NCBI RefSeq assembly: GCF_045037415.1
Contig: NZ_CP173438.1
Reading direction: 5' to 3' (one strand)
Origin: Escherichia coli
GTDB taxonomy: Bacteria; Pseudomonadota; Gammaproteobacteria; Enterobacterales; Enterobacteriaceae
DNA length: 64,000 nucleotides
Below, piece by piece: positions 6,856 to 52,238 of this stretch. Within the stretch, counting starts at the first letter, position 1. Every line of letters begins with the position of its first letter. Under the pieces are notes generated by a model. It made no database searches, was not told the origin of the DNA, and was given only the letters and a program-made list of their open reading frames with translations. Made by a program: the position numbers and the translations under genes.

Positions 6856-8547
6856 ATGAAAACGCTGCTGATTATTGACGCTAATCTCGGTCAGGCACGC
6901 GCCTATATGGCGAAGACCCTGCTGGGCGCGGCGGCGCGAAAAGCAAAACTGGAAATCATCGACAATCCGAACGACGCAGAAATGGCGATTGTTCTCGGTG
7001 ATTTCATCCCGAATGACAGCGCGCTGAACGGTAAAAATGTCTGGCTGGGCGATATTTCCCGGGCAGTTGCGCACCCTGAGCTGTTCCTGAGTGAAGCCAA
7101 AGGCCATGCGAAACCTTACACTGCGCCGGTCGCTGCGACAGCACCGGTTGCTGCTAGCGGTCCGAAACGCGTAGTTGCGGTGACTGCTTGCCCGACTGGT
7201 GTAGCACACACCTTTATGGCGGCTGAAGCCATTGAAACCGAAGCGAAAAAACGTGGCTGGTGGGTGAAAGTTGAAACCCGTGGTTCTGTTGGCGCGGGTA
7301 ATGCAATCACACCTGAAGAAGTCGCAGCAGCGGATCTGGTGATTGTGGCGGCAGATATCGAAGTGGATCTGGCGAAATTTGCTGGTAAACCGATGTATCG
7401 CACCTCTACCGGTCTGGCGCTGAAGAAAACTGCGCAGGAACTGGATAAAGCGGTTGCTGAAGCAACGCCGTATGAACCAGCGGGCAAAGCTCAAACAGCG
7501 ACCACTGAAGGTAAGAAAGAGAGTGCAGGCGCTTACCGTCACTTGCTGACGGGCGTCTCTTACATGCTGCCGATGGTTGTTGCAGGTGGTCTGTGTATCG
7601 CGCTTTCTTTTGCTTTTGGTATCGAAGCGTTTAAAGAGCCGGGTACGTTGGCAGCGGCGCTGATGCAGATTGGTGGTGGTTCAGCCTTTGCGCTGATGGT
7701 GCCGGTACTGGCAGGTTATATTGCCTTCTCCATTGCCGATCGTCCGGGTCTCACGCCGGGTCTGATTGGCGGTATGCTGGCGGTTAGCACCGGTTCTGGC
7801 TTCATTGGCGGTATTATTGCGGGCTTCCTGGCGGGTTACATTGCGAAGTTAATCAGTACGCAACTGAAACTGCCACAGAGTATGGAGGCACTGAAACCGA
7901 TCCTGATCATTCCGCTAATTTCCAGTCTGGTGGTCGGTCTGGCGATGATCTACCTAATCGGTAAACCGGTTGCTGGCATTCTCGATGGGTTGACTCACTG
8001 GCTGCAGACCATGGGGACTGCGAATGCGGTTCTGCTGGGGGCGATCCTCGGTGGCATGATGTGTACTGACATGGGCGGTCCGGTAAACAAAGCAGCGTAC
8101 GCATTCGGTGTGGGTCTGCTGAGTACTCAAACCTATGGCCCGATGGCGGCGATTATGGCGGCAGGTATGGTGCCACCGCTGGCAATGGGTCTGGCAACAA
8201 TGGTGGCGCGTCGTAAATTCGATAAAGCGCAGCAGGAAGGTGGCAAAGCCGCTCTGGTACTTGGTCTGTGCTTTATTTCGGAAGGTGCAATTCCGTTTGC
8301 TGCTCGTGATCCGATGCGTGTGCTACCGTGCTGTATCGTTGGTGGGGCGCTGACTGGCGCAATCTCAATGGCGATTGGTGCGAAACTGATGGCTCCGCAC
8401 GGTGGTCTGTTTGTTCTGCTGATCCCTGGCGCTATTACGCCGGTATTGGGTTACCTGGTAGCAATTATTGCCGGTACGCTGGTGGCGGGTTTGGCCTATG
8501 CCTTCCTCAAACGCCCGGAAACACAAATAGTAGAAAAAAACGCATAA
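6856..8547 (+). CDS. fruA: PTS fructose-specific IIB'BC component
   Basis: 563 aa; N-terminal IIB-like domains followed by polytopic IIC membrane domain. Confidence 0.9.
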   Translation: MKTLLIIDANLGQARAYMAKTLLGAAARKAKLEIIDNPNDAEMAIVLGDFIPNDSALNGKNVWLGDISRAVAHPELFLSEAKGHAKPYTAPVAATAPVAASGPKRVVAVTACPTGVAHTFMAAEAIETEAKKRGWWVKVETRGSVGAGNAITPEEVAAADLVIVAADIEVDLAKFAGKPMYRTSTGLALKKTAQELDKAVAEATPYEPAGKAQTATTEGKKESAGAYRHLLTGVSYMLPMVVAGGLCIALSFAFGIEAFKEPGTLAAALMQIGGGSAFALMVPVLAGYIAFSIADRPGLTPGLIGGMLAVSTGSGFIGGIIAGFLAGYIAKLISTQLKLPQSMEALKPILIIPLISSLVVGLAMIYLIGKPVAGILDGLTHWLQTMGTANAVLLGAILGGMMCTDMGGPVNKAAYAFGVGLLSTQTYGPMAAIMAAGMVPPLAMGLATMVARRKFDKAQQEGGKAALVLGLCFISEGAIPFAARDPMRVLPCCIVGGALTGAISMAIGAKLMAPHGGLFVLLIPGAITPVLGYLVAIIAGTLVAGLAYAFLKRPETQIVEKNA

Positions 8548-30421: not shown

Positions 30422-30604
<183 letters not shown>

Positions 30605-36719: not shown

Positions 36720-37670
36720 ATGCGTGTGTTACTGGCTCCGATGGAGGGTGTACTTGACTCTCTGGTGCGGGAATTACTGACCGAAGTTAACGACTACGAT
36801 CTGTGCATCACCGAGTTTGTCCGCGTGGTGGATCAACTGCTGCCAGTAAAAGTCTTTCATCGCATTTGCCCTGAGCTACAAAATGCCAGCCGGACACCAT
36901 CCGGTACGCTGGTTCGCGTGCAGTTGTTAGGGCAGTTCCCACAGTGGCTGGCAGAGAACGCCGCCCGTGCGGTGGAGTTAGGTTCCTGGGGCGTGGATCT
37001 TAACTGCGGCTGCCCGTCGAAAACGGTTAACGGTAGCGGTGGTGGGGCAACGTTACTGAAAGATCCTGAACTCATCTACCAGGGTGCAAAAGCGATGCGC
37101 GAAGCTGTACCGGCGCATTTGCCTGTCAGCGTAAAAGTGCGTCTGGGCTGGGACAGCGGTGAGAAGAAATTTGAAATCGCCGATGCGGTTCAACAGGCTG
37201 GTGCTACGGAGCTGGTAGTACATGGGCGGACAAAAGAGCAGGGTTACCGCGCGGAACATATTGACTGGCAGGCGATTGGCGAGATTCGCCAGCGGCTTAA
37301 TATTCCGGTGATTGCCAACGGTGAAATCTGGGACTGGCAGAGTGCGCAACAATGCATGGCGATCAGCGGCTGCGACGCAGTGATGATTGGTCGCGGGGCG
37401 CTCAATATTCCCAACCTGAGCCGTGTGGTGAAATATAACGAACCGCGAATGCCGTGGCCGGAGGTGGTTGCTTTGCTGCAAAAATATACCCGTCTGGAAA
37501 AGCAGGGCGATACCGGGTTATATCACGTTGCGCGGATTAAACAGTGGTTGAGTTATTTGCGTAAAGAATACGATGAAGCAACGGAATTATTTCAGCATGT
37601 TCGGGTGTTGAATAATTCCCCTGATATTGCAAGGGCTATTCAGGCCATTGATATCGATAAGCTGCGATAA
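36720..37670 (+). CDS. dusC: tRNA-dihydrouridine synthase C
   Basis: Track ORF trimmed to [13 protein letters not shown] (316 aa); Dus-family TIM barrel. Confidence 0.85.
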
Positions 37671-37759
37671 TAGTGGAATCGCAGCTTATCTGAGACAATG
37701 AATCGCTTATTCAGCTTCATCATCTTGTTGCGCTCCTTTCATGAGCTAAGCCACATATT

Positions 37760-37965
37760 GCCACTGGCGCAAGGAGCGCGCAGGGGGAGGACAATCGCCT
37801 CCTCCCCCTGCACCCCCGGGCTCTGGCGAACAAAATCGCCGCTGCGCGGTACCTTCAGCTTATCCCCTTCGGCTACCGGGTCGGGCGCGAGGTAACGTCC
37901 TTGTAAGACGCGCCCTCAGCCCACATCCATGTGGGCTGCCCCGGCCTTCGGGGAACGCTTCAGCG
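37760..37965. repeat. GC-rich dyad-dense intergenic block of unassigned family
   Basis: Successive dyads (gggggagg...cctccccc; cagcccacatccatgtgggctg; ccccggccttcggggaa) in ~200 bp with sharply higher GC than flanks; no credible coding frame. Confidence 0.35.
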
Positions 37966-38057
37966 ATTTTGACGCCACCAACACCGGAGCTGTTTGCAAA
38001 TCAAGTACACAAAATATCTAGTTCCTGACCTGACAACTTATATGCCATATCTGATTT

Positions 38058-38141
38058 TTAAAATATCATCTTAAATACGCCAGTCACCACCAGTAGCCCA
38101 ATCAGGAAAATAATCAATACAGCCCAGAGTATAATTTTCAT
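38058..38141 (-). CDS. yohP: Small hydrophobic membrane protein (27 aa)
   Basis: AAGGAA SD 7 nt upstream of ATG; translation MKIILWAVLIIFLIGLLVVTGVFKMIF; below the ORF-track size cutoff; position between dusC and mdtQ matches K-12 yohP (memory). Confidence 0.55.
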   Translation of the reverse strand: MKIILWAVLIIFLIGLLVVTGVFKMIF

Positions 38142-38364
38142 TGGCGTTCCTTTATTTGTGAGTGCTGAATAAGTATAGGAAAAAACGAAGCCCTTTGCCG
38201 CTATCCATAAACGATTAAGATAAATCGGAAGATATCATTCACTTAGTGTATATTTTTCTGGATATGTCGTTTTATTGCTACTGATGTATTGCCACGCGAA
38301 ACTAAAAAATATATCGCAACACACGGTAATCTCCGCGCACCTTTTCTTACCTGATTATTCCCCC

Positions 38365-39801
38365 ATGAATCGTGATTCCTTTTATCCCGCCATCGCCTGT
38401 TTTCCGCTGTTACTGATGCTGGCCGGGTGTGCACCTATGCATGAAACCCGCCAGGCGTTAAGCCAGCAAACGCCCGCTGCACAAGTTGACACCGCATTAC
38501 CCACGGCGCTGAAAAATGGTTGGCCAGACAGCCAATGGTGGCTGGAGTATCACGATAATCAACTCACTTCCTTAATTAACAATGCACTACAGAACGCACC
38601 GGATATGCAGGTGGCTGAACAGCGCATTCAACTGGCTGAAGCCCAGGCGAAGGCAGTTGCTACTCAGGATGGTCCGCAGATCGACTTTTCTGCGGATATG
38701 GAGCGGCAAAAAATGTCTGCAGAAGGGTTAATGGGGCCGTTTGCTCTGAACGATCCTGCCGCAGGTACGACCGGTCCGTGGTACACCAACGGTACTTTTG
38801 GCTTAACGGCGGGCTGGCATCTCGATATCTGGGGAAAGAATCGGGCAGAGGTAACTGCTCGCCTGGGTACGGTTAAAGCACGAGCGGCGGAACGCGAGCA
38901 AACCCGCCAATTGCTGGCTGGCAGCGTAGCCCGCCTGTACTGGGAGTGGCAAACCCAGGCGGCGTTAAACACTGTCTTACAGCAAATCGAAAAAGAGCAG
39001 AACACCATTATCGCCACCGATCGCCAGCTATATCAGAACGGGATTACTTCTTCAGTTGAAGGTGTGGAAACCGATATTAATGCCAGCAAAACCCGGCAGC
39101 AGCTCAACGATGTCGCGGGGAAAATGAAAATTATTGAGGCACGGTTAAGCGCACTTACAAATCACCAGACAAAGGCATTGAAGCTTAATCCGGTCGCGTT
39201 GCCGAAAGTGGCAAGTCAGCTTCCTGATGAACTGGGGTACTCCTTACTGGCCCGGCGGGCAGATTTGCAGGCGGCGCACTGGTACGTTGAGTCATCGTTA
39301 AGCACTATTGATGCGGCAAAAGCGGCATTTTATCCTGACATCAACCTGATGGCCTTCCTGCAACAGGATGCGTTGCACTTAAGCGATCTGTTCCGTCATT
39401 CCGCGCAGCAAATGGGCGTTACGGCAGGCCTGACGCTACCCATTTTCGATAGTGGTCGTCTTAACGCCAACCTCGATATCGCAAAAGCCGAAAGCAACTT
39501 GTCTATCGCCAGCTACAACAAAGCGGTGGTTGAAGCGGTGAATGACGTGGCGCGGGCAGCCAGTCAGGTTCAGACACTGGCGGAGAAAAACCAGCATCAG
39601 GCGCAAATTGAGCGCGATGCCTTGCGTGTAGTAGGTCTTGCGCAGGCGCGCTTTAACGCGGGCATCATTGCGGGTTCCCGCGTCAGCGAAGCCAGAATCC
39701 CCGCGCTGCGTGAGCGGGCCAATGGCCTGTTATTGCAAGGGCAGTGGCTGGATGCCTCCATTCAACTCACTGGTGCGTTGGGCGGGGGTTACAAACGCTG
39801 A
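38365..39801 (+). CDS. mdtQ: Outer-membrane efflux lipoprotein (OprM/NodT family), apparently intact
   Basis: Track ORF trimmed to MNRDSFYPAIACFPLLLMLAGC lipoprotein signal (478 aa); single uninterrupted frame. Confidence 0.75.
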   Translation: MNRDSFYPAIACFPLLLMLAGCAPMHETRQALSQQTPAAQVDTALPTALKNGWPDSQWWLEYHDNQLTSLINNALQNAPDMQVAEQRIQLAEAQAKAVATQDGPQIDFSADMERQKMSAEGLMGPFALNDPAAGTTGPWYTNGTFGLTAGWHLDIWGKNRAEVTARLGTVKARAAEREQTRQLLAGSVARLYWEWQTQAALNTVLQQIEKEQNTIIATDRQLYQNGITSSVEGVETDINASKTRQQLNDVAGKMKIIEARLSALTNHQTKALKLNPVALPKVASQLPDELGYSLLARRADLQAAHWYVESSLSTIDAAKAAFYPDINLMAFLQQDALHLSDLFRHSAQQMGVTAGLTLPIFDSGRLNANLDIAKAESNLSIASYNKAVVEAVNDVARAASQVQTLAEKNQHQAQIERDALRVVGLAQARFNAGIIAGSRVSEARIPALRERANGLLLQGQWLDASIQLTGALGGGYKR

Positions 39802-42080: not shown

Positions 42081-42253
42081 AAAGTTCTTTTGCGCTGCAT
42101 TGCTGGCGTAAATGTCAGCAATGCAGCATTTCCTCACGATTCTCCTTTGACGATCGCACTTTTTGCTCGTTATGATGGCGTCGCTAGCCTCAGTAAATCC
42201 TTACTCCGGCGGTGCGCAACCCGTGCGCGTGAACCACTATCTGAATGCTCATC

Positions 42254-50627: not shown

Positions 50628-51359
50628 ATGAAGATGTTGCGCGATCCGCTGTTCTGGCTCATTGCTTTGTTTGTGGCACTGATTTTCTGGCTACCTTATA
50701 GCCAGCCGCTGTTTGCTGCCTTGTTCCCACAACTGCCACGACCCGTTTATCAGCAAGAAAGTTTTGCAGCTCTGGCACTGGCTCATTTCTGGCTGGTGGG
50801 AATTTCGAGTTTGTTTGCGGTGATCATTGGTACTGGTGCCGGAATTGCTGTCACTCGCCCGTGGGGTGCGGAATTTCGCCCACTGGTGGAAACTATTGCC
50901 GCCGTTGGGCAGACTTTTCCGCCCGTCGCGGTGCTGGCGATTGCCGTTCCGGTGATCGGCTTTGGTCTGAAACCAGCGATTATCGCCTTGATCCTTTACG
51001 GCGTGCTGCCCGTCCTGCAGGCGACACTTGCCGGGCTGGGAGCGATTGATGCCAGCGTGACAGAAGTTGCGAAAGGTATGGGAATGAGTCGTGGTCAGCG
51101 ACTGCGTAAGGTCGAGCTACCGCTGGCGGCTCCGGTGATTCTGGCTGGCGTGCGAACTTCGGTGATTATCAACATTGGTACGGCGACGATCGCCTCAACG
51201 GTAGGGGCCAGCACGCTGGGTACGCCCATCATCATCGGACTTAGCGGATTTAATACCGCGTATGTGATCCAGGGAGCGTTACTGGTGGCACTGGCGGCGA
51301 TCATCGCAGACCGCCTGTTTGAAAGGCTGGTGCAGGCGTTCAGCCAGCACGCAAAATAA
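50628..51359 (+). CDS. yehW: Osmoprotectant ABC transporter permease
   Basis: 243-aa permease with EAA-loop ([14 protein letters not shown]). Confidence 0.85.
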
Positions 51360-51447
51360 AGGTATAACCTGCGAGCATGACGCCACCAATTCCGCCTAAC
51401 GCCATAAACAGGAACAGGGCGATGACCCCAATTTTAGCTATGCGCAT
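51340..51447 (-). CDS. yohO: Small hydrophobic membrane protein (35 aa)
   Basis: Minus-strand ATG at 51445-51447; translation [35 protein letters not shown]; stop overlaps last 20 nt of yehW convergently; below ORF-track cutoff; gene name from memory of K-12 layout. Confidence 0.5.
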
Positions 51448-51506
51448 AATGCACTCCTTATGTTAACGAAAGGATTGTACAGTAAAGCGCATTTGTTAAC
51501 GAATCA

Positions 51507-52238
51507 TTAAATGCCGAGTGGGAAAATATCATGGCCTTGTTCTTGCCAACTGGTGAGTTGCTGCTGTTGGGCGGAGGTTCGATTATCACCGCACCACACC
51601 AGCAATGTACGGCCTTCGAACAGTTCAGGGCGTAGTTGATTGAGCGAGTGGGCGAGGACATCAATGCGCCATCCTTGTTGACTGGCAATCCAGCCCTCCA
51701 GCCACAGACGAGTGGTATCCTGAATATTCCAGCCAACCACCAGTGCATCTTTACCCTGTTTTTTGCGCGCCGAAGCCAGGCAAATAGAGATGTAGTTGAT
51801 CAGTACGCCGTCGAGGATCGCCAGCAGCGTCTGGAGAGTCGGTTGTTGGCACTGAAGCCGTCGGCGCAGAGGAATAAACAGATGTGTGGTGAGTGTCTGG
51901 GCGGGGTAATCCTGACCGCGCTCTTTGATCCACGTTCGCAGGCTATGCAGATTGCCGCTTTGCAGGTAAGTCAGTAATGTTTCTTGCTGATCGCGCCAGC
52001 CGTTCTGCACATCAACATTTTCATTACTGAGCAGCATTTTTACTTTGCTGACCTGCACGCCGTTGTCGATCCAGCGTTTGATCTCGCGGATCCGGTCAAT
52101 ATCGGCATCGTTGAACAGCCGATGGCCGCCGTCTGTCCGTTGCGGTTTCAGCAATCCGTAACGCCTCTGCCACGCGCGTAACGTGACAGGGTTAATATCA
52201 CAAAGCAACGCCACTTCACCAATTGTGTAAAGCGCCAT
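51507..52238 (-). CDS. mlrA: MerR-family transcriptional regulator (curli/csgD activator)
   Basis: 243 aa; N-terminal MerR HTH (MALYTIGEVALLCDINPVTLRAWQRRYGLL). Confidence 0.85.
   Translation of the reverse strand: MALYTIGEVALLCDINPVTLRAWQRRYGLLKPQRTDGGHRLFNDADIDRIREIKRWIDNGVQVSKVKMLLSNENVDVQNGWRDQQETLLTYLQSGNLHSLRTWIKERGQDYPAQTLTTHLFIPLRRRLQCQQPTLQTLLAILDGVLINYISICLASARKKQGKDALVVGWNIQDTTRLWLEGWIASQQGWRIDVLAHSLNQLRPELFEGRTLLVWCGDNRTSAQQQQLTSWQEQGHDIFPLGI

Follow-up and report, generated by a model that had tools for sequence, protein, structure and literature searches.

Among the systems most similar to YohO and YohP of Escherichia coli are characterized small inner-membrane regulators that work through binding to a larger membrane protein, such as those of the pairs AcrZ-AcrB, MgtS-MgtA, MgrB-PhoQ, and CydX-CydAB, which are cited as examples in PMC12719787; they share with YohO and YohP a length of <50 aa, a single-helix build, and a lack of catalytic capacity. 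For YohO, a conserved face of the helix suggests a specific partner; YohP differs from these regulators in that it appears to affect bulk membrane properties rather than one partner. The type I toxins ZorO, TisB, and DinQ form a second group of similar systems, sharing with YohO and YohP a short hydrophobic helix with charged ends and an inner-membrane location and, with YohP, an effect on the membrane potential.

YohP is a model substrate for the insertion of small membrane proteins and is the subject of several recent functional papers. Its length does not allow co-translational targeting, and it is recognized post-translationally: SRP binds YohP once the ribosome has released it, and FtsY then hands it over to SecYEG or YidC (PMC7549839). 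Membrane localization of the yohP mRNA does not depend on translation, and this mRNA can circumvent SRP (PMC7549839, PMC12648545); translation from mRNA already bound at SecY/YidC is the alternative route. Dimers form in the membrane via a glycine motif. When its level is raised, YohP reduces both the potential and the fluidity of the membrane and brings about a stringent response with (p)ppGpp accumulation as well as nucleoid condensation, while its loss reduces survival under stress and its effect is reported to be nonlethal and protective (PMC12719787). The cell is thereby shifted into a state of low metabolism in which it is protected. Stationary phase, minimal medium, and oxygen limitation each raise the level of native tagged YohP (PMC12719787), whose production falls mainly into stationary phase and into periods when nutrients or oxygen are limiting.

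For YohO, no published function was found in the literature searched, and no chain in the PDB matches either YohO or YohP. YohO is a conserved, expressed protein without a reported function.

Identification of the two genes

The window, that is, the whole 64,000-nt stretch of DNA that was analyzed, is E. coli chromosome and showed 5 differences in 64,000 from E. coli strain SK1144. A sequence-only reading of the window had described two well-formed short open reading frames (ORFs) missing from the six-frame track and had matched them by position to the K-12 small-protein genes yohO and yohP. Both were found by ORF listing, and both are on the minus strand, which had been left unnamed. The yohO coding sequence extends over positions 51340..51447 (minus strand) from an ATG to a TGA stop (counted) and encodes 35 aa, a small single-helix inner-membrane protein of the UPF0387 family. 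The yohP coding sequence at 38058..38141 (minus strand) likewise begins with ATG and encodes the 27 aa MKIILWAVLIIFLIGLLVVTGVFKMIF (TAA stop counted), a small single-helix inner-membrane stress protein. Their absence from the ORF track was as described and is explained by length, since both are shorter than the 60-aa default floor of the ORF list; such a floor conceals real, conserved genes.

The permease gene yehW (50628..51359, plus strand) is convergent with yohO, and its last 20 nt are indeed overlapped by the 35-aa ORF on the opposite strand, the two genes sharing 51340..51359 tail to tail. On the other side, mlrA (51507..52238, minus strand) lies 59 nt upstream of yohO on the same strand. 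The yohP gene is flanked by dusC (36720..37670, plus strand) and mdtQ (38365..39801, plus strand). Gene order is the same in the window and in K-12 for both mlrA-yohO-yehW and dusC-yohP-mdtQ, and the latter organization has been described as conserved (PMC12719787).

The K-12 MG1655 counterparts are b4542 (yohO, 2215657-2215764) and b4679 (yohP, 2228982-2229065). A comparison of the peptides with the K-12 annotation, which had been named as a check, gave 100% protein identity over the 35 aa of YohO (YP_588460.1) and over the 27 aa of YohP (YP_002791249.1). The coding DNA of yohP was also identical, and the sole difference within the yohO coding sequence was the stop codon, TGA here and TAA in K-12, which on the opposite strand is a synonymous change of a Phe codon in yehW. 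The 60 nt upstream of yohO were identical to K-12, and 2 positions differed in the 140 nt upstream of yohP. YohO therefore has the same 35 aa as in K-12, the same place between mlrA and yehW, and the same 20-nt overlap, and YohP has the same coding DNA, peptide, and position relative to dusC and mdtQ, with a difference 3′ of the stop that concerns the orientation of a repeat.

Curated models gave a concordant result. YohO matched the NCBIfam equivalog NF010225 over residues 1-35 of 35 with 80.1 bits (cut-off 57), and the Pfam label of its orthologues in precomputed hits was PF27791 (UPF0387_membrane). YohP matched NCBIfam equivalog NF011345 (67.3 bits; cut-off 58) and Pfam PF25659 (50.6 bits; cut-off 27), both over the full length. 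RefSeq uses the names yohO and yohP for the two genes in matching genomes, SK1144 included, and the regions carrying them were present in 5423 (yohO) and 5421 (yohP) of 5426 complete E. coli genomes. Protein identity with K-12, synteny, RefSeq names, and HMM cut-offs all agree with the names given in the sequence-only reading, and it is virtually certain that the two ORFs are the known E. coli genes yohO and yohP. As both were already annotated and named and YohP has been studied functionally, the finding is correct and ordinary.

The detection of the products, which had also been proposed as a check, is already published. For YohP, chromosomal SPA and FLAG tagging has been reported (PMC12719787, PMC5437024). 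YohO was detected as a protein by top-down mass spectrometry (PMC12529367), and a preprint on ribosome profiling gives Ribo-seq coverage for it and, citing earlier work at second hand, counts it among the small proteins bound to the membrane (bioRxiv 10.1101/2020.05.05.079178).

Expression signals and 3′ region of yohP

The Shine-Dalgarno (SD) sequence AAGGAA ascribed to the 27-aa ORF was seen at 38152..38147 on the minus strand (feature 38147..38152), 5 nt before the ATG. A putative −10 element, CTATACT, was read directly from the sequence at 38172..38178 (minus strand), 30 nt before the ATG. A C directly ahead of the −10 hexamer, here before TATACT, is a feature associated with sigma-S promoters. 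The element would be a −10 of the sigma-S type, and this fits the rpoS dependence known from Salmonella, where tagged YohP is sigma-S (rpoS) dependent and the transcript had earlier been listed as the sRNA STnc1330 (PMC5437024). Consensus scans on the correct strand gave no −35 element, no convincing sigma-70 promoter, and no intrinsic or canonical terminator for either yohP or yohO.

A 272-bp GC-rich repeat with several hairpins lies at 37710..37981, between dusC and yohP, and is inverted relative to K-12 (89% identity). It occurs in ~3 copies per E. coli genome and had no annotation in the 10 records listed. The segment 37800..38400 was matched at ≥80% in one piece by only 2002 of 5426 complete E. 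coli genomes, from which it was deduced that the arrangement at the dusC-yohP site varies between strains. The 3′ end of yohP may thus differ between strains, the 272-bp repeat being the region 3′ of yohP.

Within this repeat, 37833..37972 (minus strand) resembled the TwoAYGGAY RNA (RF01731) over its full length (model 1-168), at a sub-threshold score (28.4 bits, E = 0.014; gathering score 43). AUGGAU is found exactly in the first hairpin loop and AAGGAC in the second, with paired outer stems; the match may be a diverged TwoAYGGAY member or a chance resemblance. On the other flank of yohP, mdtQ (38365..39801, plus strand), which encodes an outer-membrane efflux component, is an open frame in the window; it is annotated as an intact 478-aa coding sequence in SK1144 and as a pseudogene in K-12 MG1655.

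Conservation and coding signature of yohO

When 1.84 billion representative proteins were searched exhaustively with phmmer and YohO as the query, only 17 representatives were returned, a narrow family in which several members represent the E. coli protein in frameshifted form. The core GGIGGVML(A/V)GY was common to all true orthologues in this set, which contains few independent sequences. A scan of one genome per species with the degenerate DNA pattern for G-I-x-G-V-M-L-(A/V)-G-Y gave at least 120 stretches. Among the 120 matches listed, 115 were in an ORF of 34-37 aa whose ATG is exactly 18 codons ahead of the motif, and in the window peptide the core occupies residues 19-28. The remaining matches listed were a chance match within a long ORF of Pedococcus and four truncated or odd sequences. 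The 115 listed orthologues comprised 74 distinct peptides, and their hosts belong to the Enterobacteriaceae, Erwiniaceae, and Pectobacteriaceae (Enterobacterales).

The start codon was ATG in all 115 listed orthologues, and an SD-like 4-mer preceded it in 111. When only codons outside the search pattern were considered, the variability at codon positions 1, 2, and 3 was 0.98, 0.45, and 1.39 bits, respectively, and dN/dS was ~0.41. Position 5 was always Lys or Arg in the listed orthologues, while the C-terminal tail was basic only sometimes. The invariance of the core is imposed in part by the search pattern; the phmmer set, unbiased in this respect and of few independent sequences, agrees with it. 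As judged from this comparative evidence, yohO is a real coding gene whose peptide is under selection.

Proposed working of YohO

For both genes it is proposed that a promoter of their own and a strong ribosome-binding site lead to a peptide that would be barely more than one inner-membrane helix. The comparative data narrow the hypotheses for YohO through its apparent own promoter, an invariant glycine-rich face of the helix, and a frequent, nonobligatory overlap with yehW. Under the positive-inside rule, the Lys or Arg invariably present at position 5 predicts that YohO is inserted N-in/C-out. The face [G/S]-G-I-[G/S]-G-V-M-L-[A/V]-G-Y in the C-terminal half of the helix would form a glycine zipper of the GxxxGxxxA type, and such a small-residue face may pack tightly against another helix. 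By analogy with most characterized small membrane proteins, the likeliest partner would be a larger membrane protein, for which the YehW/YehY permease is the leading, if weak, candidate; self-association would be the alternative. As a whole, the proposed mechanism is offered tentatively, as possible though short of probable.

Linkage of yohO to yehW

In the first three look-ups of genomic context, the upstream neighbor of yohO varied (mlrA, a TonB-dependent receptor, metG, an HTH regulator, and btsS), and a convergent, overlapping permease of the yehW type was constant. Sufficient downstream sequence was available for 96 of the listed loci, one per species, and in 84 of these 96 species yohO was followed by a convergent homologue of yehW (66-97% identity), with an overlap of 26 nt in 44, 20 nt in 35, 23 nt in 3, and none in 2. 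The convergent yehW was also kept in 8 listed species without a detected upstream mlrA homologue. No yehW was found beside yohO in the other 12 of the 96 listed species (Dickeya, Brenneria, Lonsdalea, Erwinia, and two others), in which the YohO core was intact. For 5 of 6 inspected loci of this kind, the convergent neighbor was bglX, which in E. coli is the other flank of the osmF operon. It follows that the osmF operon is an insertion or deletion in an otherwise conserved bglX...yohO arrangement and that much of the linkage between yohO and yehW can be inherited gene order. The 78 listed loci with both flanks available had mlrA and yehW in 61, yehW alone in 8, mlrA alone in 1, and neither in 8. 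Judged by these gene neighborhoods, the link of yohO to yehW is frequent, somewhat stronger than that to mlrA, and not obligatory.

In the locus of Brenneria alni, one of those without yehW, yohO (7442..7549) overlaps a convergent ORF (7530..8132) by 20 nt; this ORF encodes 200 aa and, judged by eye, has a sequence similar to that of a Nudix/isopentenyl-diphosphate isomerase. Tail-to-tail overlaps seem to arise readily at the 3′ end of yohO.

The idea that YohO is an obligate or dedicated accessory subunit of the OsmF-YehYXW transporter was downgraded, as strict adjacency fails in the 12 of 96 listed species without yehW. A looser version, in which YohO would be dedicated to modulating OsmF-YehYXW, an osmoprotectant ABC transporter, either as a small protein or at the RNA level, draws on the overlap with yehW kept in 82 of 84 listed species and on the glycine-zipper face, which suits docking to a permease helix. 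It is considered unlikely; if true, it would give YohO a function. In lineages without the osmF operon, yohO would then be kept for a second role or be on its way to loss.

The same overlap could also be read at the level of RNA, the product of the locus being an antisense transcript that runs into the 3′ end of yehW, with mutual repression by transcriptional interference or by RNase III cleavage of the duplex and with the peptide secondary (a convergent excludon). The retention of a coding overlap of 20-26 nt in 82 of the 84 listed species with a convergent yehW is in keeping with this, as is the lack of any terminator-like site downstream of yohO within yehW. Moreover, yohO-yehW is one of 165 convergent excludons catalogued in MG1655 and belongs to the core excludome of this strain, with overlapping transcripts in ≥50% of 58 RNA-seq samples (PMC12288877). 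A purely RNA-based role nevertheless leaves unexplained that the peptide is under selection, as seen from the invariant core, the retained ATG and SD, the codon periodicity, and the dN/dS of ~0.41 in the most variable part of the peptide, that the YohO protein has been detected, and that yohO persists with an intact core in the 12 listed species without an adjacent yehW. It was therefore judged improbable that the RNA is the principal product. The two roles are compatible, and an excludon may add to the function of the peptide.

Expression signals of yohO and linkage to mlrA

The SD sequence of yohO, TAAGGAG at 51454..51460 (minus strand), is located 6 nt before the ATG and is stronger than the AAGGAA of yohP; its AAGGAG portion was conserved in the upstream alignment. 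The same alignment pointed to a putative −10 hexamer, TACAAT, at 51474..51479 (minus strand), for which the family consensus is TATAAT. The −10 columns were >90% conserved across 111 distinct upstream sequences of the listed orthologues, at a fixed distance from the SD, and the box was also kept in 30 upstream sequences without a detected mlrA homologue in the sequence available. Because the box is conserved at this fixed distance even where no mlrA was detected, we infer from the alignment that yohO has its own promoter. On the minus strand near yohO, the sole terminator-like site falls within the coding sequence of yohO itself and probably reflects chance.

Within the mlrA-yohO gap, TTCGTTAACA is present twice (51461..51506, minus strand) as a direct repeat flanking the putative −10 box, and TAACA elements are conserved at both repeat positions in the alignment of yohO orthologues. 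The repeat could be a regulator binding site.

These signals bear on the suggestion that yohO is the distal gene of an mlrA-yohO operon with a role in the MlrA/CsgD curli-biofilm pathway. The two genes share a strand and are 59 nt apart, and no terminator-like site separates them, which is compatible with such an operon, and a same-strand upstream mlrA homologue was found in 71 of 93 species among the matches listed. The retention of both the −10 box and the SD in the 30 sequences without a detected mlrA homologue argues against it, as does the distribution among the 78 listed loci with both flanks, where 8 had yehW without mlrA and only 1 had mlrA without yehW. Read-through from mlrA into yohO may occur but is not required, and an operon-based role in this pathway is regarded as quite unlikely.

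Screen of short ORFs and the type I toxin question

All ATG-start ORFs of 20-59 aa in the 64-kb window (n = 558) were screened for a 19-residue Kyte-Doolittle mean of ≥2.2 and for an SD of ≥5 nt at the proper distance. A hydrophobic stretch of this grade was found in 13 of the 558 and a qualifying SD in 5, and only yohP, yohO, and zorO had both. For YohO the 19-residue hydropathy maximum was 2.41, and the description of both peptides as single-helix and hydrophobic was consistent with the hydropathy values. A simple filter on SD and hydrophobicity thus picked out exactly three genuine small membrane-protein genes in 64 kb.

The third of these, zorO, is a true type I toxin gene. Its coding sequence at 62943..63032 (plus strand) encodes the 29 aa MDTLTQKLTVLIAVLELLVALLRLIDLLK, identical to the published ZorO peptide (PMC6669753). 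The antitoxin gene orzO (OrzO-P) was located at 62624..62699 (minus strand) by Rfam (98.6 bits; gathering score 60), and a terminator-like hairpin follows zorO at about 63055..63080.

The emergence of zorO from the same screen raises the reading that YohO and/or YohP are themselves chromosomal type I toxins, that is, membrane-depolarizing peptides countered by an antisense RNA in the manner of TisB, ZorO, and Ibs. Their size, single helix, and charged flanks are like those of type I toxins, and overproduced YohP lowers the membrane potential and condenses the nucleoid, a comparison that the authors of those studies make themselves (PMC12719787, PMC12648545). However, a scan of the whole window at the Rfam gathering threshold, which covers described families, gave an antitoxin RNA only at zorO (OrzO-P) and none near yohO or yohP. 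The predicted 5′ leaders of yohO and yohP are short (~20-25 nt), whereas type I toxins typically have long structured leaders. YohP also departs from ZorO, TisB, and DinQ in that its effect is reportedly nonlethal and protective and in that its loss lowers survival under stress (PMC12719787), and for YohO no report of toxicity was found in the literature searched. That either peptide is a type I toxin was accordingly deemed very unlikely.

The reading of one or both ORFs as chance open frames named merely from annotation habit is refuted, for although short ORFs of this kind abound (the window has 558 ATG-start candidates between 20 and 59 aa), a strong SD together with a transmembrane-grade helix occurs in only 3 of them, there is conservation between genera together with a coding signature, curated HMM cut-offs are passed, and the proteins have been seen by tagging, mass spectrometry, and ribosome profiling.

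Other features of the window

The zorO locus is unannotated in SK1144, and 9 of 12 listed genomes carry no feature beneath the match. Of the 5426 complete E. coli genomes, 3391 covered the locus to ≥80%. K-12 has the orz antitoxin only (99.9 bits; NC_000913.3, about 2204409-2204484), and this orphan antitoxin has already been described (PMC11264685). Close to this locus, yehK (63214..63530, minus strand) is annotated as frameshifted in SK1144 and is intact in K-12.

The Rfam scan at gathering threshold also placed a Peptidase-S11 RNA motif (RF03039, 72.8 bits) at 42169..42249 (plus strand), just upstream of pbpG, and naRNA4 (RF02564, 88 bits) at 30425..30502 (plus strand), between mglC and preA. 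After rihB, 14150..14215 (plus strand) corresponds to a 22-codon partial "hypothetical protein" pseudogene annotated in SK1144.
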